This document shows, one piece after another, positions 2,709-25,729 of a stretch of DNA of 64,000 nt. Origin of the DNA: a virus (taxonomy: Duplodnaviria > Heunggongvirae > Uroviricota > Caudoviricetes). The stretch lies in IMG/VR virus record IMGVR_UViG_3300028840_008157. One strand, 5' to 3'. The notes under the pieces are model-generated. The model searched no databases, was not told the DNA's origin, and saw only the letters and a program-made list of their open reading frames with translations. Each line of letters begins with the position of its first letter. Positions within the stretch are counted from its first letter, which is position 1. The translations under genes and the position numbers were made by a program.

Positions 2709-2740
2709 GAGCCGTTCCGTAACGGGACGTGGACTGAAAC
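2709..2740 (+). CRISPR. Solitary, degenerate type I-C CRISPR-repeat-like unit (no array)
   Basis: GAGCCGTTCCGTAACGGGACGTGGACTGAAAC: 7-bp hairpin CGTTCCG/CGGGACG followed by an 11-nt tail TGGACTGAAAC, the architecture of I-C repeats (..GCGTGGATTGAAAC). Confidence 0.45.
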
Positions 2741-2834
2741 GATTAGGAAGGAATAAGAAAGCCAGGATTCGTAGCAAGATCATGAGGACGTTAGTGGCCT
2801 CGTGGACAGCTACCCTCTATGGGAGGAAGTAAGG

Positions 2835-3884
2835 ATGAAATTCTTCAACTCGCGGATCGTGACCAAGACGGTCCAGCTCGCCGATGCCTTGAAGGCCGAG
2901 AAGAAGCCTGACAGGAAGCTCGATGAGGTCCTGGCCGACATCAAGTCCAAGGGCCAGGTCAAGACGGCTGGCTCCGAGGCGCAGGTCAAGACGGCCGAGA
3001 AGGCCGAGGACAATATCGTCAAGCTGGCGCGCGCGATGGTCGAGAACCCGACCAAGGAGAACATCGTCGCGTTCAGGAGCGAGTTGCCTCCGACTGGCCA
3101 GGCCGTCGCCCCGACCGACGTTTCCCCTGCCCAGGGTGCGCCAGGCGAAGTCGCCGTCGAAGAGGGGAAGGCGATTTCCGAGCTTCGCATCCTCTCGGCC
3201 AAGTCGGTCAACCCGGAAGTCAAGGCGATCCTTGACGATGCGATCTCTCGCTTGACCGACGTGCAGGTCAAGCCCGAGCAGGCCGGACGAGCCGTCGGCG
3301 AATGGTCCTCGGAGGGCGCGCCCGCCCAGGTCGGCGTCGGCGAAGCCCCCGCTCGAGCCTCTTCCGAAAAGGAAGTAAAGGAAGCCAAGGTCGAGGAACC
3401 CAAGGCCGAGAAGCAGGCCAAGAAGGAGCTGCCCCCAGAGTTCCTCGAGAACATCAAGGGCAAGAAGAAGGACGAAGGAAAGAAGGAGAAGGAGGAGGCC
3501 AAGTGCGCCGATAACGAGGCGAAGTGCGCCGAGTCAGCGCCGAAGACGCTGAAGATGGCCAAGTCCCTCGACTTCCGCCAGTGGGCCGCCGAGGACGTCG
3601 TGACGGCGTGGGGCCAGCACGGGTCGTTCGACAAGTGCGTGGCCAACGTCGATGGCCTCGTCAACGAGCCTAAGACGTACTGCAAGCTGCTCCAGGTCGC
3701 GAGCGGCAAGGCCGACGCCATCGTCAAGACGGCCGCCGCCAAGAAGACTGAGAAGAAGGCCGCCCCGAAGGGCGTCTTCAAGAAGCTCGCGAAGCTCAGC
3801 GACGACGAGCTCGCCTTCCTCAAGGAGTACTGGAGGAACCTCTACGGCGACGAGTACGTCGCCAGCATGACGAAGGACTACTAA
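2835..3884 (+). CDS. Hypothetical K/A/E-rich virion-associated protein
   Basis: ATG at 2835 after GGAGG/AAGG; three VKTA motifs; C-terminal small Cys domain (FDKCVANVDGLVNEPKTYC). Confidence 0.8.
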   Translation: MKFFNSRIVTKTVQLADALKAEKKPDRKLDEVLADIKSKGQVKTAGSEAQVKTAEKAEDNIVKLARAMVENPTKENIVAFRSELPPTGQAVAPTDVSPAQGAPGEVAVEEGKAISELRILSAKSVNPEVKAILDDAISRLTDVQVKPEQAGRAVGEWSSEGAPAQVGVGEAPARASSEKEVKEAKVEEPKAEKQAKKELPPEFLENIKGKKKDEGKKEKEEAKCADNEAKCAESAPKTLKMAKSLDFRQWAAEDVVTAWGQHGSFDKCVANVDGLVNEPKTYCKLLQVASGKADAIVKTAAAKKTEKKAAPKGVFKKLAKLSDDELAFLKEYWRNLYGDEYVASMTKDY

Positions 3885-3926
3885 CCTGGGGGCAGGAAAA
3901 TTCCGTCTCCATGGTAGATGAGCCGG

Positions 3927-3969
3927 GAGGCGCCACGGAGCCGGAGCGGGTTCCGTGGCGCCTTTCTTT
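3927..3969 (+). terminator. Rho-independent terminator
   Basis: About 15-bp GC stem AGGCGCCACGGAGCC/GGTTCCGTGGCGCCT followed by TTCTTT. Confidence 0.75.
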
Positions 3970-3982
3970 AGGGGAACGAAGC

Positions 3983-4007
3983 GTCGCCCTAGCGCGAGGA
4001 TTGAAAC
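3983..4007 (+). CRISPR. Shortened solitary type I-C repeat-like unit
   Basis: GTCGCCCTAGCGCGAGGATTGAAAC keeps the GTCGC start and GCG-NGGATTGAAAC end of I-C repeats with a shortened stem; abuts the AGGAG RBS of the 4020 gene. Confidence 0.35.
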
Positions 4008-4019
4008 AGGAGAACGAAG

Positions 4020-4421
4020 ATGTTCAACGCCAGGAAGCAACGCAAGATCGCGGCCGAGGACGCCCCAGTGGCGGCCAAGCCAGCGGTCAATCCAAACGCC
4101 GGCTTCATCGACCTGAAGAAGGTGCTCCAGCAGCTCCATGAGATCGCCCGAGACCCTACGGGCAAGGACGTCGAGGTCGATTCCAGCAGCAAGCAGGGCG
4201 TCCATACCTTCACCATCAAGGTCAAGCCGACCGAGATGATGCAGCGCGCCGAGGAGAACGGCGCGGTGGCCACCGAGGCCGTCGAGGCCCCCGTGTCCCC
4301 TCCGCCGGCGGAGGCGATGCCCGTCGCGTCGTCGAAGGGTAAGTTCATGAGGACGGCCGACGCCAAGGCGTCGAGCCTCTCTCGGTACCCCGAATCGTTC
4401 CTGAAGTCGATCGGTTTCTGA
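4020..4421 (+). CDS. Hypothetical protein
   Basis: AGGAG RBS; basic N-terminus MFNARKQRKIAA; VASSKGKFMRTA motif. Confidence 0.8.
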   Translation: MFNARKQRKIAAEDAPVAAKPAVNPNAGFIDLKKVLQQLHEIARDPTGKDVEVDSSSKQGVHTFTIKVKPTEMMQRAEENGAVATEAVEAPVSPPPAEAMPVASSKGKFMRTADAKASSLSRYPESFLKSIGF

Positions 4422-4439
4422 ACAAAGGAGAGATGAAAC

Positions 4440-5444
4440 ATGAGGATTCAGTCGCGGAAGGAGGCGTTGTCGTGGGTCGACGCGCTCTCCGGCAAGAAGC
4501 CCATCGAGACGGTCCAGGACCAGATCGAGACGGCCGACGAGGCCGACCCGTCCAAGGCGCTCGAGATGACGTCGAGCATCCTGTTCGGCACGCCCATCCA
4601 GCAGGAGTCGTCCGAGCAGACCATCCGCAGGCACTCAGAGGAGGTTCGTCGACGCGAGGTCGCCAAGATCAACGAGGACCTGACCAACGACGTCAAGCTC
4701 AAGCTGTCTGACGCCGGCGTCGACCCCGTCGCCCTTGGCGTCGTCAAGTCCGAGGAGTGGGAGTCCATCTCCGACCCCGACAAGGCCGGAGAGATCGCCA
4801 AGATCGCGGCCCTCAAGCAGGAGAAGAAACTCTCCGAGGAGTGGCAGGCCGAGGGCATGAAGCCCGCGACCCCTGCCAAAATGTCCTTTGACGAGACCAC
4901 CAAGGGCGGACGCGTCATGTCGTCGGCGGCAGCCAACGAGGAGACGAGGGGAAGGCCGTCAAGCATCGGTGGTGACCCGTTCAAGCTCGACCAGATCGCC
5001 TCCGAGGCCAACGAACACGATGACGCCGTCAAGCGAAGCCGGGCTCGCCTGGACGCCGCCAAAGAGGCCAAGCGCAAGTCGATCGAGGAGAACCAGCCCC
5101 CGGAGGAGGCCGCGCTCAGGGAGGGTTCCATCCGAAGGTCCGGCGGCCACGACTCCGAGATGGGTCGTTACAAGGCGCCCGCCAACCAAGTCTCCATCCT
5201 CGACACGTACGGGGAGGGCAAGCTGCCTCCCGAGGAGCTCAAGAAAAGGATGGAGGACCTCTTCGCCTCGAAGGTCCCCGACGCCAAGTCACGGACCAAG
5301 AAGGCGCAGGAGGAGAGGCGAGAGGAGATCAAGCGGCCCAAGGAAGACGACAAGTCATGGGAGAAGGTTTCCAAGCCGACCTCAACCGCCGACCTACAGG
5401 AGAGGCTCGTGTCCTTGTGGCTACCCGAGGAACCTGGAAAATAA
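4440..5444 (+). CDS. Hypothetical charged protein
   Basis: AAGGAG RBS; 334-aa ORF with GC3-biased codons. Confidence 0.8.
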   Translation: MRIQSRKEALSWVDALSGKKPIETVQDQIETADEADPSKALEMTSSILFGTPIQQESSEQTIRRHSEEVRRREVAKINEDLTNDVKLKLSDAGVDPVALGVVKSEEWESISDPDKAGEIAKIAALKQEKKLSEEWQAEGMKPATPAKMSFDETTKGGRVMSSAAANEETRGRPSSIGGDPFKLDQIASEANEHDDAVKRSRARLDAAKEAKRKSIEENQPPEEAALREGSIRRSGGHDSEMGRYKAPANQVSILDTYGEGKLPPEELKKRMEDLFASKVPDAKSRTKKAQEERREEIKRPKEDDKSWEKVSKPTSTADLQERLVSLWLPEEPGK

Positions 5445-7882
5445 GGCGGATCGCGCAGGATTCGCTTCCCGGTGATCCAGGGCCAGAGAGCCCGGAGCCC
5501 GGCGATCCCGACGTCCAGCCCGAGACGCCGATTCTCGACCCCATGGTCACCGCCGACCAGCTTGGTCGCATCGCCTACCTCAACTCCCTGTGGCGCGGGT
5601 ACCAGAACAAGGGGCTGGACTCCGTCGTCGTTGGGAACATCAAGAACCAGGTCGCCAGCAACCAGGGCATCAACGTCATGGCCGGCGACGAGATATCCCA
5701 GATGCTCATCGACGCCGGCGTGAACGCTCCCGGGGGAGACAACCCCAAGGACGCCATCCTCCCGGACAACATCGACACGGTCTTCGCGCAGCTCAAGTCC
5801 CAGTACGGGGAGGACAACCCCGAGATGGCGTCCAACATCGACGCGGCGCTCGAGAAGGCGCGCCAGGCGGCCTACAACCAGGACGCCTCGGGGAACTCCG
5901 TCCAGGCCGACTTCAGCACCTTGTTCGCCCAGGAGTTGCAGAAGGCTCGTGGCGGACGCCCCCTGGCATCAAGGTGGGGGCTCGTCAAGACCGCGCAGCC
6001 CGTCGACCCGCTCGTCATGGAGCCTTTCCAGTCCATCGACGACATGAAGGCCCGGTTGCTCGAGCTGGGGAGACCCCAGGAGGGCGAGGAGTCAGAGAAT
6101 GCCCTGCGACGGGTATACGAAAAGGTTTTGGCCATGGTTGGCCCCGAACATACAGATAGGGCAAAGGCGGCGGTGAAGGCCTTCTATCAATTCGGGAAGG
6201 TCGCCGATCTTTGGTCCTTGTTCCAGGAACTAGGGCTCGCCGCCCCCATCGACCAGGAGGTCATTGGCGAGATCATGGAAACAAACCCGGACCTCTTCAA
6301 GAAGGACGCGGCCAAGAAGGGCCTTTTCCTGCCCCCGCATGACGCGAGCCTTTACACGTTGCCCGAGGGCATGACGAAGACCGCCTCCGGCGGAGTCGGA
6401 GGCGCCGGCTCGGCTTACCCGGCCTACGAATTCGAGGGATCCAACCGCTATTGCCCCAAGCTCCGTAACGTCGTCAACACGTTCGTGTGCCGCTACCATT
6501 GCCTCGACGGACTCAAGATCGACGACGCCCAGGTCGTCTGCGGCGAGGCCATCTGGAGGCAGGTCGTCGCGGACAAGTTCTCCCGCGAGTACCGCAACAA
6601 GGACGGCGAATGGGTCGGGGGATACCTCAACAAGCGATTCGAGATTCATCGAGACGACGGCGGTCACCCCTACCAGCTCAAGCCCGGACGGCGGCACGCG
6701 CCCATCCACGAGGACGCCTGGTCGTACGAGAAGCGCATGCAGGAGATGCGCAAGAAGGAGGGCAAGAAACGCGGCTACGGCCCCGTGTCCGGAGAGGGCG
6801 AGAAGGAGAAGCTTTACAACTTCGACCAGTACGAGCTCATGGGCGGACCCGAGTCCAGCACGCTCGGCGCCAAGCCGCGCGACCCGCTCGCGAAGAACGC
6901 CTCGTGCGGCTCCTGCGGCCTGAAGACGGCGATACACGACCCGGATCATCCAGACATCGGGCATGATCCCCGCGAGGGGTACCGTGCCGAGGAGCTGTTC
7001 GAGGACCACGTCAGCCTTGGCAAGCCCCTGACCCAGGCCGAGGTCGACGAGATCATCCATACCGTCCGGACCGCCTCCGGGCCGCTCACGCTGGACGACT
7101 TCGAGGAGAAGAACGGGTTATTCTGGTTCAAGCAGCCCGAGTTCGACGAGGAGCCACCCCCGGCCGAGGCCGCCTCCAAGTGGTCCATCAAGGAGGCCAA
7201 GACGGAAAAGCGGGAGGGGGCGTTCAACCTTCGCCGTCTCGCCGTCGACAACGGCAACCCGCTCATGGACGGGATCGACATGGGACCGAAGGCCAAGGCG
7301 TGCGCCTCCTGCGGAAAGAAGTTCGCCCTGACCTACGCCGGAGCGTGCGACGTTTGCGGCTGCGGCCAACTCCTGACCAAGAGCGACGGCGACATCAAGT
7401 CCGAGACCCACGCCGTCGACAAGCCCGAGTTCTCGCTTGACATCAAGGCGTCCGATGATGACGTCGAGGTGCGTTACGCCAATGGCGTGTTCATGGCCTC
7501 CCAGGGCGCCAGGCGCGCTTACGGGGAGTCGGCCGCCGTGGCCGTGGAGAAGCTCGCCGCCGTCCCCGAGGACGTGTCCGTAGAGGAACTCGGCCAACAA
7601 CTGAAGAAGGATGAATCAGGCGGGGTTCCCGGCGAGGAGCCGGTCGTAACGGAGGCCGAGCCCCTGGAAACGGTCGACGCGACCCCCACGACGGAACAAA
7701 TACCGATGGGAGAGGCGCCGGAATCAGGAGAAAACCCGTTCGAGGCCATGGCCTCCGACGCGGAGCCCGCCCCGGACGCCTCCGAGCTTCAGGCGAATGC
7801 CGGGGAGCCCCTGGCGGAGGGCGACGACCCTCTCGAGCAAAAGGAAGACGAGGAGAATTACGACGAGCTGATGGGAATCTGA
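5417..7882 (+). CDS. Large hypothetical protein with Cys/Zn-ribbon segments and acidic tail
   Basis: Likely GTG start at 5417 after AGGAGAGG; Cys motifs CPKL..CRYHC, SCGSC, CASC..CDVCGC; several KTA/KEA motifs. Confidence 0.8.
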   Translation: MATRGTWKIRRIAQDSLPGDPGPESPEPGDPDVQPETPILDPMVTADQLGRIAYLNSLWRGYQNKGLDSVVVGNIKNQVASNQGINVMAGDEISQMLIDAGVNAPGGDNPKDAILPDNIDTVFAQLKSQYGEDNPEMASNIDAALEKARQAAYNQDASGNSVQADFSTLFAQELQKARGGRPLASRWGLVKTAQPVDPLVMEPFQSIDDMKARLLELGRPQEGEESENALRRVYEKVLAMVGPEHTDRAKAAVKAFYQFGKVADLWSLFQELGLAAPIDQEVIGEIMETNPDLFKKDAAKKGLFLPPHDASLYTLPEGMTKTASGGVGGAGSAYPAYEFEGSNRYCPKLRNVVNTFVCRYHCLDGLKIDDAQVVCGEAIWRQVVADKFSREYRNKDGEWVGGYLNKRFEIHRDDGGHPYQLKPGRRHAPIHEDAWSYEKRMQEMRKKEGKKRGYGPVSGEGEKEKLYNFDQYELMGGPESSTLGAKPRDPLAKNASCGSCGLKTAIHDPDHPDIGHDPREGYRAEELFEDHVSLGKPLTQAEVDEIIHTVRTASGPLTLDDFEEKNGLFWFKQPEFDEEPPPAEAASKWSIKEAKTEKREGAFNLRRLAVDNGNPLMDGIDMGPKAKACASCGKKFALTYAGACDVCGCGQLLTKSDGDIKSETHAVDKPEFSLDIKASDDDVEVRYANGVFMASQGARRAYGESAAVAVEKLAAVPEDVSVEELGQQLKKDESGGVPGEEPVVTEAEPLETVDATPTTEQIPMGEAPESGENPFEAMASDAEPAPDASELQANAGEPLAEGDDPLEQKEDEENYDELMGI

Positions 7883-7913
7883 TCGTCGTCCAGGAAGAAA
7901 GAGGAGCAGAGAA

Positions 7914-8855
7914 ATGGCTGACCGGATTCGCAAGATCAATAGCACGACCGGCGAGACCCACGCGCTGATCACGACCGACTCGCTCGCGTCGGGCGCGAGG
8001 ATCAACGGCATCGCGGTCTCGCCAAACGGGACCGTGTACGCGGCCGACTACGCCAATCACGTCGTCTACAAGATCTACGAGCAAGGCAGGATCTTGGGCG
8101 TCCTGGTCGGCGAGCTGACCACGAGCGGCGACACCGCGAGCAGCGGCATGTACGGCAGCGACGGGCTCGACGCCCGCCTCGACTCGCCATACAGGCTTTG
8201 CGTGGACGCCTCGGAGAACATCTGGGTTTCCGACCGGGCCAACCACAAGATCAAGCGGTTGAGCCCGAGCGGTCGCTGCCAAACGCTGGCCGGGACCGGC
8301 GTGGCGGGCAACGTCGTCGATGACGACGGCCTGACGTGCCAGTTCAACAACCCGACCGGGATAACCGTGGACAAGAGCGGCAACCTGTACGTCTGCGACC
8401 TGGGGAACTTCCGGATCAAGAAGGTATACCCGTCCGGCAAGACGGTCGTCCTGGCCGGAAGTACCACGGGGTTCGCTAACGGGAACGGGAACGACGTCAA
8501 GTTCGCGTCCTGCTACGGTCTCGACGTCGATCCCTCCGGGATCGTCTACGTGGCCGACTACGGGAACAACAGGATCCGGCGCCTCGACCAGGCCGGCAAC
8601 GTCGTGACCCTGGCGGGTTACAGCGCGGGGTTCGTCGATGGAAGCGGTAACGCGGCTCGGTTCAGCGGTCCGTCAGAGTTGGTCCTCGACCCGAGCGGAC
8701 GGTTCATGTTCGTCCTCGACTACTCCAACACGGCCATCCGTCGCGTCACGTCCAACGGGACGGTCACGACCTTCGCCAACTGGCCTGCGGCCACCGCGAA
8801 CGCCATGGCGATGGACAAGAGCGGGTTCTTGTACTACCTCGAGGACAATGTCTAA
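7914..8855 (+). CDS. NHL-repeat beta-propeller protein
   Basis: Repeated motifs of the form FNNPTGITVDKSGNLYVCDLGNFRIKKV and GIVYVADYGNNRIRRL. Confidence 0.9.
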   Translation: MADRIRKINSTTGETHALITTDSLASGARINGIAVSPNGTVYAADYANHVVYKIYEQGRILGVLVGELTTSGDTASSGMYGSDGLDARLDSPYRLCVDASENIWVSDRANHKIKRLSPSGRCQTLAGTGVAGNVVDDDGLTCQFNNPTGITVDKSGNLYVCDLGNFRIKKVYPSGKTVVLAGSTTGFANGNGNDVKFASCYGLDVDPSGIVYVADYGNNRIRRLDQAGNVVTLAGYSAGFVDGSGNAARFSGPSELVLDPSGRFMFVLDYSNTAIRRVTSNGTVTTFANWPAATANAMAMDKSGFLYYLEDNV

Positions 8856-8866
8856 GAGGAGGACCG

Positions 8867-9076
8867 ATGCTTACTAAAATAGGGGTCGTGACCAACAGGG
8901 AGAAGAAGGCTGGACCAAACGTCCAGGACGCCCTCGAGGTCAAGGCTTCCAAGAAGTTCACCAAGAAGGTCACGTGCCCGTCCTGCGAGGCGGAGCTCGT
9001 CAAGGAATGCCCGAGCGAGGCCATGTGCGAGGTCTCGGTCCTGAAGTGCCCCCATTGCGGGGCCAGCGTAAGATAG
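8867..9076 (+). CDS. Small Zn-ribbon protein
   Basis: GGAGGA RBS; CPSC...CPHC pairs. Confidence 0.75.
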   Translation: MLTKIGVVTNREKKAGPNVQDALEVKASKKFTKKVTCPSCEAELVKECPSEAMCEVSVLKCPHCGASVR

Positions 9077-9086
9077 GAGGCCCTCG

Positions 9087-9539
9087 ATGGCGGACAAGGT
9101 CAAGTGGCTCAGGCCGGTAAGCGCCGGGACGTCGACCGAGCCGGACATGCCCCAGAAGACCGTCGTCGCGAACTTCACGACCCTGAACAACGCCGCGGGG
9201 ATCGCCATCGACAACTCCCGCAACATCTTCGTGAGCGACTCCGCTCGTCACGTCATCCTCAAGTACAGGTTCGGCTCCAAGGACGCCCCCGCCGTCTACG
9301 CGGGAGCGTACGACCAGGCGGGACTGGTTGACGGACAGGCGACGGCCGCCCGGTTCGATTCCCCCGGAGCGATCGCCGTCGACCCCAGCGGGGTCCTTTG
9401 GGTCATCGACGTTGGCAACAATCGCATCCGCAGGATCGACGCGAACGCGAACGTGTGGACCGTGGCGGCCACGACCGCCGCCGCTGGCGACCCCATCGCC
9501 GTCGACACGAGCGGCAAGATATTCTTCGTGGAGACCTGA
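9087..9539 (+). CDS. Short NHL-repeat protein, likely paralog of 7914
   Basis: ARFDSPGAIAVDPSGVLWVIDVGNNRIRRI; N-terminus MADKVK resembles MADRIR. Confidence 0.85.
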   Translation: MADKVKWLRPVSAGTSTEPDMPQKTVVANFTTLNNAAGIAIDNSRNIFVSDSARHVILKYRFGSKDAPAVYAGAYDQAGLVDGQATAARFDSPGAIAVDPSGVLWVIDVGNNRIRRIDANANVWTVAATTAAAGDPIAVDTSGKIFFVET

Positions 9540-9542
9540 TCA

Positions 9543-9803
9543 ATGTATAACCACCCATCTCTGCCCGGACGGTTCTTCAAGTCCCAGGGCGCCCTCCGAC
9601 AAGCCCTCGCCAAGAAGAAGGGTTCCGGCGGCGTTGCCGGGATGGCCAAGTCCATCAAGGGCGAGGAGCATCCCCACGCGGCCTGCATGGACAAGGTCAA
9701 GAGGCACAACATCGACGTCTCGGACCCGGAGGCTTTCTGCGCGGAGGCCGTCGACGTCGCGAAAGGAACTACCCATTGGAGGGGGAAGGACAAGGAGGAC
9801 TGA
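9543..9803 (+). CDS. Small hypothetical protein with C-x(15)-C motif
   Basis: HAACMDKVKRHNIDVSDPEAFCA; operonic spacing after the previous gene. Confidence 0.7.
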   Translation: MYNHPSLPGRFFKSQGALRQALAKKKGSGGVAGMAKSIKGEEHPHAACMDKVKRHNIDVSDPEAFCAEAVDVAKGTTHWRGKDKED

Positions 9804-9845
9804 TGACCTCTCCGGGGCGAGCATGTCCCGAGGGGGACCGCGCGG

Positions 9846-9876
9846 ACGCCGCCCGGGAGATCTCGGGCGGCGTTTT
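9846..9876 (+). terminator. Rho-independent terminator
   Basis: ACGCCGCCCG/CGGGCGGCGT stem followed by TTT. Confidence 0.6.
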
Positions 9877-9884
9877 CCGTTCGA

Positions 9885-9916
9885 GTCGCGCCCCTTACGG
9901 TCGCGCGGATTGAAAC
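9885..9916 (+). CRISPR. Solitary 32-nt type I-C CRISPR repeat-like unit (no array, no cas)
   Basis: GTCGCGCCCCTTACGGTCGCGCGGATTGAAAC closely follows the I-C repeat pattern GTCGCGCCC-N5-GGGCGCGTGGATTGAAAC: 32 nt, 7-bp stem with one mismatch, 11-nt 3' tail. Confidence 0.65.
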
Positions 9917-9920
9917 GAGT

Positions 9921-9946
9921 AGGAAAACGCGCCGTATGATCTGAAC
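9921..9946 (+). promoter_or_regulatory. Putative phage promoter AGGA-N18-GAA
   Basis: Same spacing recurs upstream of genes at 24173, 30782, 49422 and 49400(-). Confidence 0.45.
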
Positions 9947-9993
9947 GTGTAAGTATGGAAGTGTGAAGCCTTTTATAGGAGAGGGAATTGACC

Positions 9994-12900
9994 ATGAGGT
10001 TCATTGGAAACATCGAGTCCGCCATGGATGCGCTGAAGTCGTCCAAGACGGGCGCCCCGTCGGGAACCCCCCAACGCAACGTCGTCACGAACGCGCCGTT
10101 GCCTAACTCGGCGTTCGCCCAGAGCGCGGCGGCGTATACCCCTTCGCGGGTCAAGACGGCGCAGGTGTCCGGCAACGTCATCTACACGCAGCCTTCGTTC
10201 TTCAGCCCGCTGCACACGCCGCAGAACTGGCAAATCCCGACCAAGCGCCGCGAGGTATACCAGTGGTCGTTCGTAAACGGCGACAAATTGATGACCAATG
10301 ACGGAACTTACAAGTGCATTTCAAAAATAGTCGAAGGTGACAAGCTGGTTACCCATACGGGCGAAGTCCAGACGGTTGACAAGAGGACTTCCAGGATGGT
10401 GGATACGGACTTGTTCTCCGTATCTTACGACGGTCATTACCTTCGAACCAGGCTCACTCGAGGCCACAAGGTATACGTCCTCCGCAGGGAGGACGTCCTT
10501 TGCAAGTATAGCAACAGCGGTTGCAAGATGGCCTCTCGTTACTGCGATTCAAACAACCTGCATTACATGTGCCGAAGGACGAAGTGCAAACGACACGAGG
10601 AAAGAGAACTCGTTCCGGAACTGGTTCCCGTGGAGAACATCAAGGAGGGGGATTTCGTTTATACCCCGTCTATGATCTCCGACAAATCATCATCCAGCAT
10701 ACCTACCATTGATCATGCCAGGCTGCTCGGATACTACTGCGCCGAGGGATGCCTTTTGGGCAAGACGGGCGTATGCTTTACCTTTGGAATCCACGAGGAA
10801 ACATTCGCCAATGAAGTTGTAGCCTTGGCGACAAAATGCTTCGGAACCGAGGTCAGGAAAACAAGAATCGCAAAGCATCCCGAACGCGGAACGTGCGACG
10901 TATTCGTTAATTCGAACAGTCTGAACGCCTTTTGCCATGAGCATTGCGGGAGCATGGCGACCAAGAAGCGGCTTTCCGTCGGACTCATGACGTCAAGCCG
11001 CGAAATCCAATTGAACTTCCTCGCCTCTTATTGGAACGGGGATGGATGCCAGAGTTTTACGAAAGGAAATCATGGAAGGGTCGATTTCAGGACGTCGTCC
11101 ATGTTTCTCTCTGAACAAATCCAATCCCTCTTGTCCATGTGCGGATATCCGTCAAGGTGCAGTTTTTCGAGGACCAAGAACAACCACAAATCCATGGTCC
11201 ACAGGCAATCCAAGAAGCCGTTCTTCGATTGCTACACCGTATCTTTTGGGGCGAGCGCGGGAGGAGACTTCTTTGACCTGTGCGGTGCCGACGTTGGCTC
11301 CCAGAAGGGAAGGAAGTCAAGCGTCAGGCTCGTCTCCGGAATGTTACTGAGACGCGTCAAACGCGTTTCCTCGAAACCCTACAAGGGGAAGGTATACGAC
11401 GTTCGCGTCCCTGGGAACTACTCGGTCGTTTGCAACGGCATAGCCGTGGCCCAATGCCGCTACTACTACGAAAATGAACCCAAGGTCGCGTCGGCGATAG
11501 ACTTCTACAGCCACTTCGCCATCAACGGGTTCGAGACCCAATGCGAGCATCACGCGATCAAGCGGTTCTTCGACCAGCTCAACAAGAAGCTCAACCTGGA
11601 TTACTGGGCGAAGCTCATTTCCAAGGAGTACTACATGCTCGGGGACGTGTTTCCGTTCCTCGAGATCGAGTGCCAGAAGTGCCACGGGGGCGGCTTCACC
11701 GATAGCGGTAAGGTTTGCCGCCACCCCGGCGGATCGTTCAGGCGTCTCGTGGTCCTCAACCCGGACTGGATCGACGTCCAGACCAACGTCATGGTCGACG
11801 ACCCGATCATCACGCTGCTCCCGGACGACGAATTGAAGAAGATCGTCTGGCGCAAGCAGCCCAAGGCCATCTACGACAGGCTCCCGACGAACGTCCGGGC
11901 TCTGATCCTGGCCAACCGGCCGATCCCGCTGTCCAACGAATGCGTGTCGCACCTGCGGCACAACCCGTACCCCTACGGGACGTACGGCGTGTCGCTCCTG
12001 AGAAGGCTGTTCAAGACGCTCGCCTACAAGGACAAGCTGATGTCGGCGCAGTGGATCATCGCCGAGCGCATGATCCTGCCCGTCCGCGTCGTGAAGCTCG
12101 GCGACTCCGAGCGTCCCGCCGGGCCGGCCGACATCGCCGACGTCCAGAACCAGCTCGCGAACGTGGTGAACGACCCGAACCTGACGCTGGTGACCCACCA
12201 TGCGTTCAACTACGACTGGATCGGGACGAGCGGCAAGGTCCTCCAGCTCTCGAACGAGTACGAGCTGATCGACAAGGAAATCCTCCAGGGTCTCATGATC
12301 AACGAGGCATTGCTATCAGGAATGATGGGAAGTTATCAGTCAGCCGCCATCGGCGCCGAGGCCATGATCCAGCGGATGGAGTCGTGGAGGCTCGAGCTGG
12401 CCCGATGGATCGAGGATCGCATCTACAAGCCGGTCGCCCAGATGAAGGGCTTCGTGGACGAGGCCGCCACCAAGGAGGTAGGCGAGCCCGTTTGGATCTA
12501 CCCGAAGATCCAATGGAACGAGCTCAACATCCGCGACGACAGCCAGCAGAAGCAGTTGCTCAACTCGCTCTTCGACAAGGGTCTCCTATCGGGCCAGTCG
12601 TTGCTCGAGAAATACGGGCTCGACTACGACCACGAGATCGAGCGCCTGCGGTTCGAGTCCGCGACCCAGAAGCTCGCCGGGATGGCCGGCGCGGGCGGCG
12701 CGGGCGGCATGATCGGCGGCATGGGCGGCGGAGCTGGCGGGGGCATGGAGGGCTTGTTCGGCGGAGGCGGGGCGCCCGCTGGCGGACCGGAGATGGGCGG
12801 CGCCCCGGAGATGGGCGGCGCGGACATGGGAGGCGCCCCGGCGGCCCCGGCCGCGGCGGCCGGAGTAGGGGGCACGTCTGGCAAGATACTATCCAAGGGC

Positions 12901-13422
12901 CGCAAGCCCATGGGCCAGGTTCCGGACGAGGCCGACATCCAGCCGGTAACCGTGAGGCTGACGTCTCTCGAGTCGCTGATGTACAAGGAAATCTCCGCGA
13001 TGAAGCTGCCGTTCGCGGTCGGCGTCCAGCAGCAGATCGGCCCGTACGTGGCCGACTTCTGCATCCCGATGCTCAAGATGGACATCGAGGTCGACGGCGC
13101 GTACTGGCACAACCAGCCCGAGACCAAGGCGCACGACGAGATTCGGGACGACGAGATGTCACGGGCGGGCTGGACGATCCTAAGGTTCGGCGAGTCCGAA
13201 CTAAAGGAGCGGCTGCCAGAGGTTCGGAAGACTATATTGGCGTACGTCCACAAGAACTGGCGTCGCGCCATCGAGGAGCAGAAGCGCCAGACGAAGGCGT
13301 TCGACGAGGCGTCTCTGCGCATGACGAAGATATCGGGCGAGACGGAGGAGGTGTCGCCCGTCATCGAGCCGGAGGTCGACGGTGGCGATTCCGATCAAGG
13401 AACGGGGAATCCGGTGGGTTGA
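9994..13422 (+). CDS. Portal protein with intein and C-terminal DUF559/Vsr-like endonuclease domain
   Basis: Position upstream of protease, scaffold and MCP; portal-like segments (YYENEPKVASAIDFYS, YYMLGDVFPF, HLRHNPYPYGTYGVSLL, PVRVVKLG); Gly-rich linker then GPYVADFC..IEVDGAYWH..RDDEMSRAGWTILRF. Confidence 0.85.
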   Translation: MRFIGNIESAMDALKSSKTGAPSGTPQRNVVTNAPLPNSAFAQSAAAYTPSRVKTAQVSGNVIYTQPSFFSPLHTPQNWQIPTKRREVYQWSFVNGDKLMTNDGTYKCISKIVEGDKLVTHTGEVQTVDKRTSRMVDTDLFSVSYDGHYLRTRLTRGHKVYVLRREDVLCKYSNSGCKMASRYCDSNNLHYMCRRTKCKRHEERELVPELVPVENIKEGDFVYTPSMISDKSSSSIPTIDHARLLGYYCAEGCLLGKTGVCFTFGIHEETFANEVVALATKCFGTEVRKTRIAKHPERGTCDVFVNSNSLNAFCHEHCGSMATKKRLSVGLMTSSREIQLNFLASYWNGDGCQSFTKGNHGRVDFRTSSMFLSEQIQSLLSMCGYPSRCSFSRTKNNHKSMVHRQSKKPFFDCYTVSFGASAGGDFFDLCGADVGSQKGRKSSVRLVSGMLLRRVKRVSSKPYKGKVYDVRVPGNYSVVCNGIAVAQCRYYYENEPKVASAIDFYSHFAINGFETQCEHHAIKRFFDQLNKKLNLDYWAKLISKEYYMLGDVFPFLEIECQKCHGGGFTDSGKVCRHPGGSFRRLVVLNPDWIDVQTNVMVDDPIITLLPDDELKKIVWRKQPKAIYDRLPTNVRALILANRPIPLSNECVSHLRHNPYPYGTYGVSLLRRLFKTLAYKDKLMSAQWIIAERMILPVRVVKLGDSERPAGPADIADVQNQLANVVNDPNLTLVTHHAFNYDWIGTSGKVLQLSNEYELIDKEILQGLMINEALLSGMMGSYQSAAIGAEAMIQRMESWRLELARWIEDRIYKPVAQMKGFVDEAATKEVGEPVWIYPKIQWNELNIRDDSQQKQLLNSLFDKGLLSGQSLLEKYGLDYDHEIERLRFESATQKLAGMAGAGGAGGMIGGMGGGAGGGMEGLFGGGGAPAGGPEMGGAPEMGGADMGGAPAAPAAAAGVGGTSGKILSKGRKPMGQVPDEADIQPVTVRLTSLESLMYKEISAMKLPFAVGVQQQIGPYVADFCIPMLKMDIEVDGAYWHNQPETKAHDEIRDDEMSRAGWTILRFGESELKERLPEVRKTILAYVHKNWRRAIEEQKRQTKAFDEASLRMTKISGETEEVSPVIEPEVDGGDSDQGTGNPVG
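10267..11454 (+). mobile_element. Intein with LAGLIDADG homing endonuclease (396 aa) in the portal
   Basis: N-junction W|SFVNGDKLM; block B LTRGH; LAGLIDADG blocks LLGYYCAEG and FLASYWNGDG; block F/G KVYDVRVPGNYSVVCNGIAVAQ|C; visibly more AT-rich than flanks. Confidence 0.9.
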
Positions 13423-17641: not shown

Positions 17642-20600
17642 ATGCTCTTAAAATACCACAAGCCAGTGCGCGGCAAGATCATGGCGATCCTCCAAGCGCC
17701 CGGGCAACACGTCGTCGAGGTCCCGAAACCCAGGGAAGAGCCCGTCGGCCATGAGGTGAAGTACGCCGACGCCGTCGGACGCGAGATCAAGCAGGTCCTC
17801 GCCAGGAAGTTCGTGGGAGAGATCAAGCGTCGCGCCGACGGGACCGTCGACCTCGTCGCCGAGATGGCGAAACACCCGGAGGCGCTCTGGGTCAGGGTCA
17901 AGGCCATCGAGGCCGACGTCCCAAACGACAACGGCGACCTCTTCTCCGAGGACGAGATCTCCAAGTCCTACCAGACGTTCGAAGGCGTCCCCGTCTTCAC
18001 GAACCACGAGAACAACAAGGTCGAGGCCGCCAAGGGCAAGGTCGTCATGGCGGAGTGGGTGCCGGACGAGAAGTCCGTGTACTGCACGATGTTCATCGAT
18101 CGGGAAGCCTTCCCGACCCTTTGCCGCGCCATCGAGGAAGGCTACATCACGGACGTGTCGATGGGCACCCAGGTCGACTACTCCACGTGTAGCATCTGCG
18201 AAAACAAGGCGATCACGGCGGCCGACTACTGCGACCACGTCAAGACGATGAAGGGCCGCACGATCAACGGCAAGCAGGTGTTCGAGCGAAACTACGGCCT
18301 GAAGTTCATCGAGATCAGCGTCGTCACGGACGGTGCCTGCAAGGATTGCACGATCCGCGACGTTCTCGACCCCGAGGATTTCGTGGAGCAGGCCGGCGAG
18401 CTACAGAAGGCCGCCGAGTCCATGGAGCGCGTCGTCAAGACCGGGGACCGCGTCGAGCAGGACGACCTCGGGTCGCTCCTGTCCGGCATGAAGGATTTGG
18501 CGTCCTCGGAGCTCATGACGAAGGTCGCCGGCCAGGATGAGATCTCCAAGCTCAACCAGGCCATGGACTTGGTCCAGGACGTCGCCCAGACGATGCTGAG
18601 CCAGCGCCAGTACATCGACCTGGAATTCCTCGAGGACGTCGTCAAGGTCCTCGCCGACTTGCAACACGTCAACGACGAGCTCGTCGACCAGGGCTACGGC
18701 CGCGTCGGCGAGCCGCAGCAGCCAGGCGTGCCGCCGATGCCGGAGGCCCCCGGAGCGCCACCGATGCCAGGGCAGGAATCCGCCCCGGCCGCGCCGAACG
18801 AAACAATGGTACCCGCCCCGGGAGGGGTCGGGAAAGTCACGGAGCCCGCCATGGCGTCGAACGACAAGGAGACGCGCCTCTCGTCGTCTATAAAGGATTT
18901 GCACGAGAAAGCGCAGAAAATTTACGAAGAGGCTAGGGCCGAAGCGAGCTCTCGCGTCGGCGGCAATGGAGGCCAAGAGCCAGTGAATACCACCGAAAAG
19001 CGACAGGAAACCGTCAAGAAGCTCGCGCACGTCTGGAAGAACCCCTGCGTCAGGGGATTCAAGGCCGAGTTCTCCGAGGGCCCGTTGAAGATCATCATCG
19101 GGGACGAGGAGGTCTATGGAATGCGAGGCGCGCAGAAGATCGCTTCCCTCAAGATCGCCGATCTTGAAGATGACATCCGCGACGTCATCGACAAGGACCC
19201 CAAGTTCGCCGGGGCCGAGATGTTGACGGCCCTGAAGAAGCTCGCCGAGTCCGCCCCGAGCAACACGGCCGAGCAGCAATCGGACACCATGGAGGCGCAA
19301 CTGGAGAGCCAGCGCGTCCCGCTGCATCCCCGGACCGACGAGATCCGCCAGTCGATCACCGAGGACCAGCTCAGGGAGAAGCAGCGCGGGTACGACAAGC
19401 ACGCCCGGGACAACGACCCCCGCGACGTCATAACGGAGGCCCAGCTCCCCGACGAGCGCCAGGACGCCCCTCGCGACGAGGTCATGGAAGGGCAGCTCCG
19501 CGACAAGGGCATCGAGGGCAACCAGACGCCGGCCGACAGGGATTCCTACGCCGCCGGCGTGACCGACCAGAAGCAACAGATCACCGAACGACAGATCAAC
19601 GACTGGCGGGAGTCCGACGAGGCTCACCGCCCGGAAACCATCACGGAAGACCAGCTCAAGAGCGATCAGGGCGAGCCGTGGGGACGCCGCATCGCGTCGA
19701 AGGAGGACGCGAGGAAGGCGCTCGCCGCGGGGATGCAGGCGTTCGTCAGGACGGCGAAAGCCACTGGGGCGACCCCAGCCGAGATCGTCTCCTCCGTTTC
19801 GGAGTTCGTCGCCTCGCCGCGTAACGCGGTCAAGGCGACCAACTTCATCGAGGCCTCGAAAGTGGGCCAAGATGGACGCGAGACGATGCTCCGCAGGGCT
19901 GCGTTCCACGGGACGCCCCGCGACTCGTCCAGGCTTTCCGTGCAAAACTACCTGCTCGGCAGTCTTTCCGACGTCGGCCTCCGCGGCGAGGTCGGGCTGA
20001 AGATCGCCGAGACGATCTCCTCCCAGAAGGACGCCCCCGACAAGATCGCCGAGGCGGTCAAGGCTTGGAAATCCTCCGAAGAGGCGAAGGACGAGCCCAA
20101 CGCGGCGGAGTTCCTCCGCGAGGCGCTCGCCGAGGACTCCGAGGAGGTCGTGAAGGTCATCCTGGCGTCAAGCGACGTGAAGGGCGAAGGCGAGAAGTGG
20201 GTCGAGTCGGCCTACGACGCCGCCACGAAGATCGCCGCCAACCAGGGGATCGAGGTCTCCAAGCGAGTACAAGTCCAGAAGAAGGCCGACGGAAGCGTCG
20301 AGGTCAACCTCATGGGCCGCAAGGCTTCCGGCGACAAGAAGGTCAAGGTCGCCGAGAAGAAAGAGGCGGACCTGAAGGAGCGCAAGGAAGCCCGGCGCAA
20401 GGTCGCCCAGATGCCCGCGGGCGGGATGCCCGCTGGCCCGGACCCCATGGGAGCCCCAGGCGGGACGACGATGCCGATGCCGCCCGCGGCTGGCGACCCG
20501 ACGGCCGCCCCCCCGGTTAGCGCGCTCGGCGAGCCGCCCGAGGCCGGCCTGGAAGAGGAGCCGATGGAGGGCGAGGCGCTTCCGCCAGGAAGCATTTGCC

Positions 20601-21208
20601 CGGCCTGTGGTTCCGACGACGTCGACATGAAGGGCGGCGACTTCAACTGCAACCAGTGCGGCTCGACCGGACACATCACGGTCAAGATCGACATGGACAC
20701 GTGGCCCGGGTCGATCGAGGAGAAGAACCCGGCCGAGAAGGCCGAGATGGAGGAGGAGGGGCTCGGCGAGGAAGGCGGGGAGATACCGCCGGCCGGGCTG
20801 CCCCCCGTCGGGATCGCCGCTTCGTACAAGGTGACCCCGGAGATGGTCAAGAAGGCCGGCAGCGAGAAGTCGCCGATCGGACGGTTCTGCCCGCATTGCG
20901 GGTCGAGCAAGGTCAAGTTGGCCGCGAAGGCCGGTTCCGGGAACGGCACGTGCGAGTCCTGCAAGGGCGCGTACGGGTTCGACACCTTCGTCCAGGAAGG
21001 GACCAACGACATCTGGGCGAGGATCGAGTGGCAGGACCGAGGCCGAAAGTCGCGGTTCGCCGCCAAGCCCAAGGCGTGCAACCCCAAGAAGGCGAAGCTC
21101 GAGGCGGCCCTCAAGTCGAAGGGACTCGTGAAAAAGTTCGCCAGCGCCGACGTCGCCGGGAAGGCGAAGATCATCGCCGACCTGCACGACGAGGGGGTCC
21201 TTGCCTGA
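17642..21208 (+). CDS. Prohead (capsid maturation) protease-like protein with long C-terminal extension and Zn ribbons
   Basis: NDNGDLF, FTNHEN..AKGKV, DVSMG (candidate catalytic Ser), CSIC..CDH, FIEISVV are typical of large-phage HK97-type prohead proteases; CPAC/CNQC and CPHC/CESC ribbons. Confidence 0.8.
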   Translation: MLLKYHKPVRGKIMAILQAPGQHVVEVPKPREEPVGHEVKYADAVGREIKQVLARKFVGEIKRRADGTVDLVAEMAKHPEALWVRVKAIEADVPNDNGDLFSEDEISKSYQTFEGVPVFTNHENNKVEAAKGKVVMAEWVPDEKSVYCTMFIDREAFPTLCRAIEEGYITDVSMGTQVDYSTCSICENKAITAADYCDHVKTMKGRTINGKQVFERNYGLKFIEISVVTDGACKDCTIRDVLDPEDFVEQAGELQKAAESMERVVKTGDRVEQDDLGSLLSGMKDLASSELMTKVAGQDEISKLNQAMDLVQDVAQTMLSQRQYIDLEFLEDVVKVLADLQHVNDELVDQGYGRVGEPQQPGVPPMPEAPGAPPMPGQESAPAAPNETMVPAPGGVGKVTEPAMASNDKETRLSSSIKDLHEKAQKIYEEARAEASSRVGGNGGQEPVNTTEKRQETVKKLAHVWKNPCVRGFKAEFSEGPLKIIIGDEEVYGMRGAQKIASLKIADLEDDIRDVIDKDPKFAGAEMLTALKKLAESAPSNTAEQQSDTMEAQLESQRVPLHPRTDEIRQSITEDQLREKQRGYDKHARDNDPRDVITEAQLPDERQDAPRDEVMEGQLRDKGIEGNQTPADRDSYAAGVTDQKQQITERQINDWRESDEAHRPETITEDQLKSDQGEPWGRRIASKEDARKALAAGMQAFVRTAKATGATPAEIVSSVSEFVASPRNAVKATNFIEASKVGQDGRETMLRRAAFHGTPRDSSRLSVQNYLLGSLSDVGLRGEVGLKIAETISSQKDAPDKIAEAVKAWKSSEEAKDEPNAAEFLREALAEDSEEVVKVILASSDVKGEGEKWVESAYDAATKIAANQGIEVSKRVQVQKKADGSVEVNLMGRKASGDKKVKVAEKKEADLKERKEARRKVAQMPAGGMPAGPDPMGAPGGTTMPMPPAAGDPTAAPPVSALGEPPEAGLEEEPMEGEALPPGSICPACGSDDVDMKGGDFNCNQCGSTGHITVKIDMDTWPGSIEEKNPAEKAEMEEEGLGEEGGEIPPAGLPPVGIAASYKVTPEMVKKAGSEKSPIGRFCPHCGSSKVKLAAKAGSGNGTCESCKGAYGFDTFVQEGTNDIWARIEWQDRGRKSRFAAKPKACNPKKAKLEAALKSKGLVKKFASADVAGKAKIIADLHDEGVLA

Positions 21209-21266
21209 ACAAGGGCTGAAACAAGGAACGATAGATCGAAACGTAACACGTAAAGGAGATTGGGAG

Positions 21267-24865: not shown

Positions 24866-25729
24866 ATGCTCAAGAATAACCAGAACGATCAGGAACGCGA
24901 GGCCGTTATCGCGCAAGCCCTCGAGACGGATGAGGGTCGCGTCGCTCTCGCGCAGGCCATGGTGGAGCCAATCCGCCGGGCCCTCGAGTACCAGGCCGTC
25001 GGGCGCAAGCTGCTCATGGTGGACGAGCTCCCTCAGGGTGCGCTCGCTCGCTACGAGCGTGACGTTCGCTCGGTCGCCCGCGTCATCTCCCGCAGGGGCG
25101 CGGTGCCGGACGAGATCCAAGAGGGCGAGGAAGTCCTCGTCCCGACGTTCGAGATCGCGACCAACCCGCAGGTTCGGTTGAGCGAGATCAAGGCTCGCCG
25201 GTTCTACATCGTGGACCGTGCGCAGATCAAGGCCAAGGAAGCGATCCAGAAGGAAGAGGATAGCAATATCTTCAACGCTCTGATCGCGTCCGTCAACGCC
25301 GCTCACACGGTCACGGCGACCGGTGGCGCGCTGACCCTGACGGCCCTGAACCAAGCGTTCGCGACGATCGAGGCGCACGACCTCACGGTCGCCAAGATCG
25401 TGATGCACGCCCAGCGGTACGCCGACGTTCGTAACTTCGGCAAGACCGTGTACGACGAGGCGACTCAGCGCGAGGTCTTGACCTCCGGCTTGTTCGGTCA
25501 CCTCTGGACCGCGGACATCCACGTCAGCTCCAGGATGCCCACGACCACCGTCCTCCTGACGGCGCCCGCCGATTACGTCGGCGCGTTCCCGATCCGGCAG
25601 GACATCACGGTTCTCCCCGCGGACGACCCGAAGAAGCTCCGCCTCGGCTGGGTCATCTACGAGGAGATCGGGATCGTGGTCATCAACGACTACGCGGTGG
25701 CCAAGATCACGGTGACCAGCGGCTCGTAA
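24866..25729 (+). CDS. Major capsid protein, HK97 fold
   Basis: GRVALAQAMVEPIRRALEYQAVGRKLLMVDELPQGALARYERD, PTFEIATNP and C-terminal GWVIYEEIGIVVINDYAVAK; strongly biased codons; followed by a terminator. Confidence 0.9.
   Translation: MLKNNQNDQEREAVIAQALETDEGRVALAQAMVEPIRRALEYQAVGRKLLMVDELPQGALARYERDVRSVARVISRRGAVPDEIQEGEEVLVPTFEIATNPQVRLSEIKARRFYIVDRAQIKAKEAIQKEEDSNIFNALIASVNAAHTVTATGGALTLTALNQAFATIEAHDLTVAKIVMHAQRYADVRNFGKTVYDEATQREVLTSGLFGHLWTADIHVSSRMPTTTVLLTAPADYVGAFPIRQDITVLPADDPKKLRLGWVIYEEIGIVVINDYAVAKITVTSGS

Follow-up and report, generated by a model that had tools for sequence, protein, structure and literature searches.

Single viral repeats that resemble CRISPR repeats are at present interpreted as evolved anti-CRISPRs made of RNA. 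The closest described systems are RacrIC1 and the solitary repeat units (SRUs) of Camara-Wilpert et al. 2023 (PMC10651486; for this and the other papers cited below, statements refer to the parts consulted). In those parts, SRUs are treated as evolved mimicry, their origin is not addressed, and no insertion scar of the kind described here is reported. The current study concerns three type I-C-like repeats, termed E1 (the 2709 element), E2 (the 3983 element), and E3 (the 9885 element), located within a 64-kb stretch of IMG/VR virus record IMGVR_UViG_3300028840_008157 (hereafter the window), which contains the head module and neighboring genes of a jumbo phage resembling phage G. Like RacrIC1 and the SRUs, these are single intergenic repeats having no nearby array or cas gene, and they can likewise sit within a polycistronic transcript. 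Unlike them, three copies occur in one virion module, two have broken stems, no own promoter is evident, no acr neighbor of the kind often present ≤1 kb from Racrs was recognized (no acr library was searched), and two copies exhibit duplications anchored at a protospacer adjacent motif (PAM). The SRUFinder program calls SRUs at ≥90% identity to a known repeat (PMC10651486); the three elements are intergenic, with no other repeat within 100 nt and no cas genes in the 123 of about 441 kb of genome examined, whereas their identities all fall below 90%. We interpret E1–E3 as worn host I-C repeats, with E2 and E3 likely to have been inserted between the PAM and the protospacer of CRISPR-targeted sites, a reading to which we assign a probability of roughly 0.6. 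For E2 and E3, the sequence support comes from repeat identity, flanking duplications, the same footprint in unrelated viruses, and empty junctions in relatives.

All three elements are intergenic and encoded on the + strand, as are the junction features around them, the gene at 2835..3884, the portal gene, and candidate E4 described below, and their positions agree with those reported in an initial annotation made from the sequence alone. The motif GGAYTGAAAC is matched exactly three times in the window, whereas 0.36 matches are expected and 1 of 100 shuffles reached three. When the I-C stem base is also required, three occurrences are observed, whereas 150 Markov simulations predict 0.013 per 123 kb and never yield more than 1. 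The 123 kb comprise the window plus 59 kb upstream taken from record G001, a 111-kb record that is near-identical to the window phage and contains the same three elements and no others. Three uniformly placed points would fall within 7.2 of 123 kb with a probability of ~0.01. The copies are spaced 1.2 and 5.9 kb apart and no two lie at spacer distance, no CRISPR array or fourth copy was found in the 123 kb, and no Cas domain was detected in a scan of part of the open reading frames (ORFs), 39 in the window and 47 upstream, which agrees with the earlier description of solitary repeats lacking an array or cas gene in the window.

The I-C assignment is principally derived from a covariance model built exclusively from 19 array repeats of Planctomycetota, with no phage sequence included. 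This model recovers E3 (9885-9916) with 36.5 bits (E 5e-8) and E2 (3983-4007) with 22.3 bits (E 6e-4), while E1 (2711-2740) scores 11.9 bits (E 0.58) and is not significant alone. Among 35 array repeats collected from Planctomycetota, a library separate from the 17,823 repeats of SRUFinder, the best identities are 24/32 (75%) for both E1 and E2 and 27/32 (84%) for E3. The expected kinship with database repeats is significant against the array-repeat model for E3 and E2, but no element reaches 90% identity to any of the 35. The 11-nt 3' handle NGGATTGAAAC is matched at 11/11 positions in E3 and at 10/11 in both E2 and E1, and the G6-C18 pair of E3 also occurs in 2/35 of the collected repeats and in 1/301 Phycisphaerae genomes. 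None of the elements reaches an Rfam gathering score (CRISPR-DR9 appears at E 0.057 and 0.72), and Rfam is evidently insensitive here, because its CRISPR families find no match in five relatives including L078, a related phage locus that carries near-perfect repeats. Exact E3, E1, and the first L078 repeat each have 0 matches in viral contigs, E3 made degenerate at two positions has 0 in genome contigs, blastn of E3 versus phages and plasmids yields chance-level matches only, and the I-C pattern occurs at control level in 50 distant viral records. Judged by sequence, the three elements are decayed type I-C repeats, with strong support for E3, clear support for E2, and weak support for E1. The core motif of hammerhead ribozymes is CUGANGA; a hammerhead reading of the hairpin plus GAAAC was rejected by eye, as this core is missing and no Rfam match was obtained.

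The elements differ in how much of the I-C structure persists. The 7-bp stem, which in I-C repeats stops 11 nt short of the 3' end, is present in E1, broken in E3, and reduced to three pairs in E2. E1 (2709..2740; best alignment from 2711) is the most diverged copy and one stem pair has apparently been deleted from both arms, yet its 6-7-bp stem is intact, as the initial annotation had noted, and is predicted to fold in context with a stem-base pairing of 0.77-0.90. It lies between the stop codon of ORF 1222-2703 and a late-promoter-like AGGA...AA box at 2749..2777, which was identified by comparison with the relatives L074, L076, L078, L095, L111, and L125 and is of uncertain assignment, its spacing being greater than the usual 19. 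E2 (3983..4007) lacks 7 nt of the upper stem and is fused to the ribosome-binding site (RBS) at 4008-4019, just as first described; its predicted pairing is 0.89 alone and 0-0.26 in context. E3 (9885..9916) indeed has the full length of 32 nt, but the hairpin attributed to it is broken by the T at position 17, which places C7 opposite T17 where G17 is invariant in 19/19 host repeats, and the predicted canonical stem-base pairing is 0.03 alone and 0 in context.

At both E2 and E3, an I-C PAM is followed by a copy of the first downstream bases, the repeat, and then the downstream DNA again. At E2, TTT is followed by a 12-nt copy (3970..3981), a single additional base, the repeat, and then the 12 nt once more (11/12 identical, with a mismatch at position 4), after which comes ATG. 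The right copy is the RBS itself, and together with the start of ORF 4020-4421 it forms the putative former protospacer (4008..4041). Without the insert, E2 would have the layout of relative L074. At E3, TTC, the canonical I-C PAM, and GA (9880..9884) precede a repeat beginning with GT, and GAGT follows at 9917-9920, such that GA plus the repeat's own GT copies GAGT and the duplication amounts to 2-4 nt. The putative former protospacer (9917..9950) contains a promoter-like AGGA-N19-AA box (9921-9945) ahead of the portal gene. Versus random flanks, the E2 duplication has P 0.0004-0.003 and the E3 combination of TTC and GAGT has P about 0.0015, using a duplication measure devised after E2 and E3 had been seen. 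In Legionella, TTC and TTT perform best as PAMs of the I-C system, in acquisition as well as in interference (PMC5602111). The earlier claim that two elements follow terminators stands in part: terminator-like GC hairpins with U-tracts appear in folds ahead of E2 (a long one at 3926..3969, ending in the TTT at 3967-3969) and E3 (9847..9876, after ORF 9543-9803), whereas a terminator scan called no + strand site. A 9-bp inverted repeat also flanks E3 (9869-9877 and 9922-9930); the site before insertion would have been a hairpin and the repeat would have landed in its loop.

An independent test is available from solitary I-C repeats on other viral contigs. A scan for intact repeats returned 192 matches in 101 loci, of which 30 were dropped at contig edges and 97 were excluded due to another repeat nearby, leaving 65 solitary repeats, or 59 after dereplication. 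With a duplication score threshold of ≥5 and a null distribution of permuted flank pairs (400 permutations), 6/59 repeats have a flanking duplication versus 0.76 expected, and 0/400 permutations reach six; the scoring was refined after a first pass, which gave the same picture. All six of these repeats follow either TTC (L377, L397, and L420) or TTT (L351, L387, and L412), where 0.03 such cases are expected, and again 0/400 permutations reach a count of six for PAM plus duplication. Read on the other strand, 0/5 follow TTC/TTT; as this reading uses the same duplications, it demonstrates only that the PAM is one-sided. A further repeat, L364:301-332 on the - strand, escaped the score but is preceded by TTC and a 34-nt sequence and followed by G and the same 34 nt, consistent with a complete protospacer duplicated around one repeat, while L359 exhibits the short, E3-like form. 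At least seven of the 59 sampled repeats thereby carry a recognizable scar, and three or four of the six scored scars are 7 nt in length. As a control, 1/30 first repeats of real arrays has such a duplication, and this one is a T-run. An RBS plus ATG occurs downstream in 9/59 repeats and in the opposite sense in 7/59, indicating no orientation bias in the viral set, and among the scar-like loci inspected, 6/10 have the start codon of a sense ORF (≥41 codons) ≤30 nt downstream, much like E2.

Based upon these junctions, a capture mechanism can be proposed. Initially, the host would have a spacer identical to the ~34 nt that today lie downstream of the repeat. In type I-E systems, the Cas3 nick falls at a distance of 7-11 nt from the PAM. 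It is the displaced strand that Cas3 nicks (PMC11127173), and in the proposed sequence of events it would do so a few bases beyond the PAM. The nicked 3' end would then be attached to the repeat in front of that spacer, at its first base, most simply via leader-side half-site integration by Cas1-Cas2, since in E. coli this complex integrates the non-PAM 3' end first, at the leader-repeat junction (PMC10011333). Template switching during repair would yield the same product, although the exact repeat boundary would be less well explained. Recombination within the spacer/protospacer would subsequently generate the PAM, a short copy, the repeat, and the whole protospacer. The whole protospacer would now be preceded by the AAC of the repeat instead of a PAM, the fragment remaining at the PAM would be too short to target, and the insertion would hide the site from Cascade; as a rule, the ends of repeats do not match PAMs (PMC8482600). 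Inserts would persist only where the DNA is non-coding, and these would decay afterwards, E3 having decayed the least and E1 the most. The right junction would accordingly be the array's own repeat-spacer join, which is why the host would have held that spacer, whereas the left junction would connect a phage 3' end, lying 2-34 nt beyond the PAM, to the repeat start or to a position within a few bases of it. I-C priming is strand-biased, local, and graded by position (PMC5602111), and primed acquisition near one site could yield three same-strand events within 7 kb, although sense-strand selection explains the same-strand clustering equally well.

The distribution among relatives was assessed using 151 portal-related loci under default filters, many of which do not reach the relevant junctions. 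Significant I-C matches occur solely in L078 (67% portal identity) and are absent in 150/151 loci. The L078 copies are near-perfect: L078a (L078:6178-6209) lies in frame within the 5' end of the ORF 5357 homologue, and L078b (8944-8974) precedes the ORF 8867 homologue and keeps its upper stem. At L078a, a second start lies upstream and overlaps in a different frame, and its product resembles the N-terminus of the homologues; an intron or bypass reading of this locus is unsupported, as the repeat is translated in frame from a downstream ATG. The flanks of L078a and L078b have an apparent similarity that may reflect low complexity. The junctions corresponding to E1–E3 are free of I-C repeats in L074, L076, L078, L095, L111, and L125, within the coverage of each. 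A terminator-like hairpin lacking a repeat precedes the homologue of the 4020 gene in L074, L095, and L125 and the portal gene in L074 and L075, and L074 exhibits the empty state of terminator, U-tract, RBS, and ATG. Because the junctions are repeat-free in relatives and the L078 sites differ, the repeats are lineage-specific additions at variable sites. The initial annotation regarded several dispersed copies in a virion operon as unusual, but they are not unique: L078 has two at other sites of the head module and other viral contigs carry two or three dispersed solitary I-C repeats (L345/L349, L359/L407, and L384). L345 and the second L349 copy have a common upstream flank, suggestive of cassette duplication.

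Several observations weigh against insertion at targeted sites. Only 2/5 clade copies are scarred, with E1, L078a, and L078b having no significant scar, and the E3 duplication is short, with a score of 3 that falls below the threshold of 5 applied to the viral set. The PAM of E2 belongs to the U-tract of a terminator. No match was found among 129 host spacers beyond 13-14-nt chance matches, 401 Planctomycetota genomes contain no array repeat differing from E3 by 3 mismatches or fewer, and no joint skipping a repeat was seen in runs X1-X5, which were examined for empty alleles; for three of the viral scar loci, no relatives that could show such an allele are present in the phage collection. A second viral set, consisting of repeats ending in T, has 0/13 scars, and about 85-90% of viral solitary repeats lack a scar by this measure. 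All five clade copies (E1–E3, L078a, and L078b) are in sense orientation, which selection at the RNA level would explain as well, and E1 keeps both its stem and 10/11 handle bases. The assignment of E1 to the capture process is by analogy only, and E1, which has diverged most in sequence although it is predicted to fold well, may have been retained for a role as RNA. Scar origin and later RNA use can both hold. More tentatively, and at somewhat less than even odds, we propose that viral solitary repeats generally originate from host interference and adaptation machinery pasting a repeat at the PAM-protospacer junction, and that this phage records three successive escapes, the oldest of which (2709) is now a folded RNA element.

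The initial annotation favored purpose-built mimics that either titrate Cascade proteins or expose the polycistronic structural mRNA to Cas5c, a view that is not supported given the broken stems and PAM-anchored scars of E2 and E3 and the empty junctions of the other close relatives. The broken stems fit decay or selection against the cutting of an essential mRNA. The Cas5c stem is predicted not to form in E3 or, in context, in E2, and this argues against designed decoys; only E1 folds well. As an RNA anti-CRISPR, the repeats would be carried on abundant late or read-through transcripts as decoys that are cut by Cas5c, coated by Cas7c, and titrate Cascade. We consider this unlikely as the explanation of all three elements, although a repeat that arose as a scar could have been put to such use later, chiefly the one at 2709. 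It would account for the shared sense orientation, the handle identity of 10-11/11 in E1–E3 (which partly reflects how the elements were found), the folding of E1 in context, and the upper stem of L078b; RacrIC1 functions from a bicistronic mRNA (PMC10651486), and type I-C arrays occur in the hinted host phylum, where the Cas5d family is matched in 56/301 Planctomycetota genomes, albeit this family also matches other Cas5 proteins and the host is only hinted. Opposed to it are the predicted canonical pairing, which is near-absent in E3 and low in E2 in context, identities below the SRUFinder cutoff, the location of E1 and E3 upstream of promoter-like boxes and of E2 and E3 downstream of terminator-like hairpins, and the lack of repeats in all but one of the related loci. 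A somewhat less probable scenario is that a host Cas5c, or an unseen phage-encoded one, cuts the head-module mRNA at gene junctions and thereby sets how stable it is or how well it is translated; cleavage of the 3983 copy would place the 11-nt handle before the RBS. Every copy is at a gene start in the sense direction, and Cas5d reads the stem base and the 3' overhang, which are the best-kept parts (PMC5965381). Moreover, the host locus L261/L275 (G337:C5, about 59730-59761) has the same layout as E2, with a degenerate Planctomycetota I-C solitary repeat fused to the cas5c RBS, where it possibly serves Cas5c autoregulation. This scenario has difficulty with the differing positions in the window and L078, the empty sites of other relatives, the stems of E2 and E3 that are predicted not to form, and the lack of any Cas5 or Cas1 family match in G001 or four distant large records, with about 318 kb of the genome unseen.

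Two other explanations fare worse. The handle and the downstream 34 nt could serve in Cascade as a guide RNA against insert-free sister phages, or for Cracr-like repression of a host cas promoter. Capture would indeed make the downstream DNA a former spacer, an insert-free sister phage would carry the PAM plus target, and single-repeat viral crlRNAs exist (10.1101/2024.10.29.618823), but there is neither a second repeat nor a terminator at guide distance, the E2 and E3 stems are broken, no PAM-flanked match exceeds shuffled controls in the 123 kb of phage sequence, and in 189 kb of host loci comprising cas genes and arrays the seed runs reach 7-8 nt at best, a figure without a separate control; we therefore regard this role as improbable. 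The least credible possibility is the alternative offered in the initial annotation, namely that a phage promoter includes the element, with TTGAAA as the -35 box. Part of that suggestion has a basis, as GA(T/G)TAGGAA is the start of an AGG[AT]-N19-AA box that is most likely a late promoter of these phages, and promoter-like AGGA boxes are located 4-8 nt downstream of both E1 and E3. Yet the box is found in 13/34 clade leaders, nearly all of which are repeat-free, and L078 has TTAGGAA before its portal gene with no repeat; E1 reads CTGAAA, no sigma-70-type site is called there, and the match of the 5' half to array repeats would be left unexplained. Insertion of a host repeat at a targeted site followed by decay remains our preferred reading of E2 and E3.

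The genomic setting is the head module of a jumbo phage and the genes next to it. The stretch is present in full in one sediment run and one seawater run, and either could be its source. The major capsid protein (24866-25729) has 55% identity to Bacillus phage G gp27, the maturation protease spans 17642-21208, and the portal protein (9994..13422) contains an intein-like LAGLIDADG insert and a C-terminal DUF559 domain; this DUF559/very-short-patch-repair-like nuclease domain is found clade-wide. Downstream of E1 lies a head-module gene of unassigned function (2835..3884) that is conserved in the clade. Its leader (2757-2822) and L076 at about 2680-2725 have common short motifs and a long paired stem, possibly a translational operator. 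The other head-module neighbors of the elements are conserved genes having no Pfam/PHROG match, and a single-protein search of viral contigs with ORF 5357-7882 returned no match. Two NHL beta-propeller genes (7914-8855 and 9087-9539) mark a sub-clade, and a WYL-domain gene lies in the same module just upstream of the window (L161:1659-2168). The window's ClpC is encoded on a 440,765-nt contig, and among the 120 ClpC homologues listed, the 18 with an organism name are all Planctomycetota (18/18), including named groups that belong to this phylum. These homologues hint that the host is likely a member of the Planctomycetota.

Other repeat-like or RNA-like features were encountered as well. A fourth candidate, E4 (21197..21222), consists of a hairpin and GCTGAAAC across the stop codon of the protease gene. 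It matches 23/37 positions of a second Planctomycetota repeat family (L309), is not matched by the covariance model, has no scar, and lacks a counterpart in L073, L076, L078, L081, and L108; it is not I-C and, as a weak candidate, may be of chance origin. L074:1857-1893 is a 37-nt element in the leader of the ORF 2835 homologue, downstream of a promoter-like box, which starts with GT, ends with GTTGAAAC, and forms a short stem; it is repeat-like, but neither I-C nor matched in Rfam. L125:8535-8650 and L095:9630-9760 encode a common, apparently paired, RNA-like portal leader having GGCCA...TGGCC arms followed by a TCAAG motif. In L081, the stretch between the NHL gene and portal (640-800) has a translation similar to a TnpB's zinc-finger end.

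Taken by itself, this phage yields a modest result, namely three decaying repeats whose roles are putative. The addition made by this analysis is the cross-virus scar count. PAM-anchored duplication provides a sequence test for the origin of viral solitary repeats. If the proposal is correct, a captured repeat would turn a target into self-like sequence, allowing escape at the DNA level without any anti-CRISPR gene, and some of the Racrs predicted so far may be scars. Such scars would be raw material for RNA anti-CRISPRs and Cas5c processing sites, and each could be read as a former host spacer plus PAM, which would help in linking phages to hosts. A full-text literature search, for which most subscription papers were out of reach, found no description of PAM-anchored repeat insertion in phages.

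Beyond RacrIC1 and the SRUs, three known systems are comparable. The I-C array repeats of Planctomycetota (19 variants) are 32 nt in length with a stem at 3-9/15-21 and an 11-nt handle, and they are matched at 27/32 positions by E3 and at 30/32 by the L078 copies, but the phage copies lie outside of arrays and E1 and E2 are shortened. The crlRNAs of Cracr (10.1101/2024.10.29.618823) and the host SRUs and mini-arrays (10.1101/2023.03.03.530964) similarly combine a single degenerate repeat with a spacer-length sequence, whereas in this phage there is no terminator at guide distance, no target was found, and what follows the repeat is an RBS or promoter-like box belonging to the phage itself. The closest parallel to the proposed mechanism is spacer-protospacer recombination (Varble et al. 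2019, as cited in 10.1101/2020.10.09.333658), in which spacer homology joins phage DNA to a host array. There, the outcome is transduction of CRISPR loci; here, a single repeat would stay behind at the PAM junction, accompanied by a short duplication.

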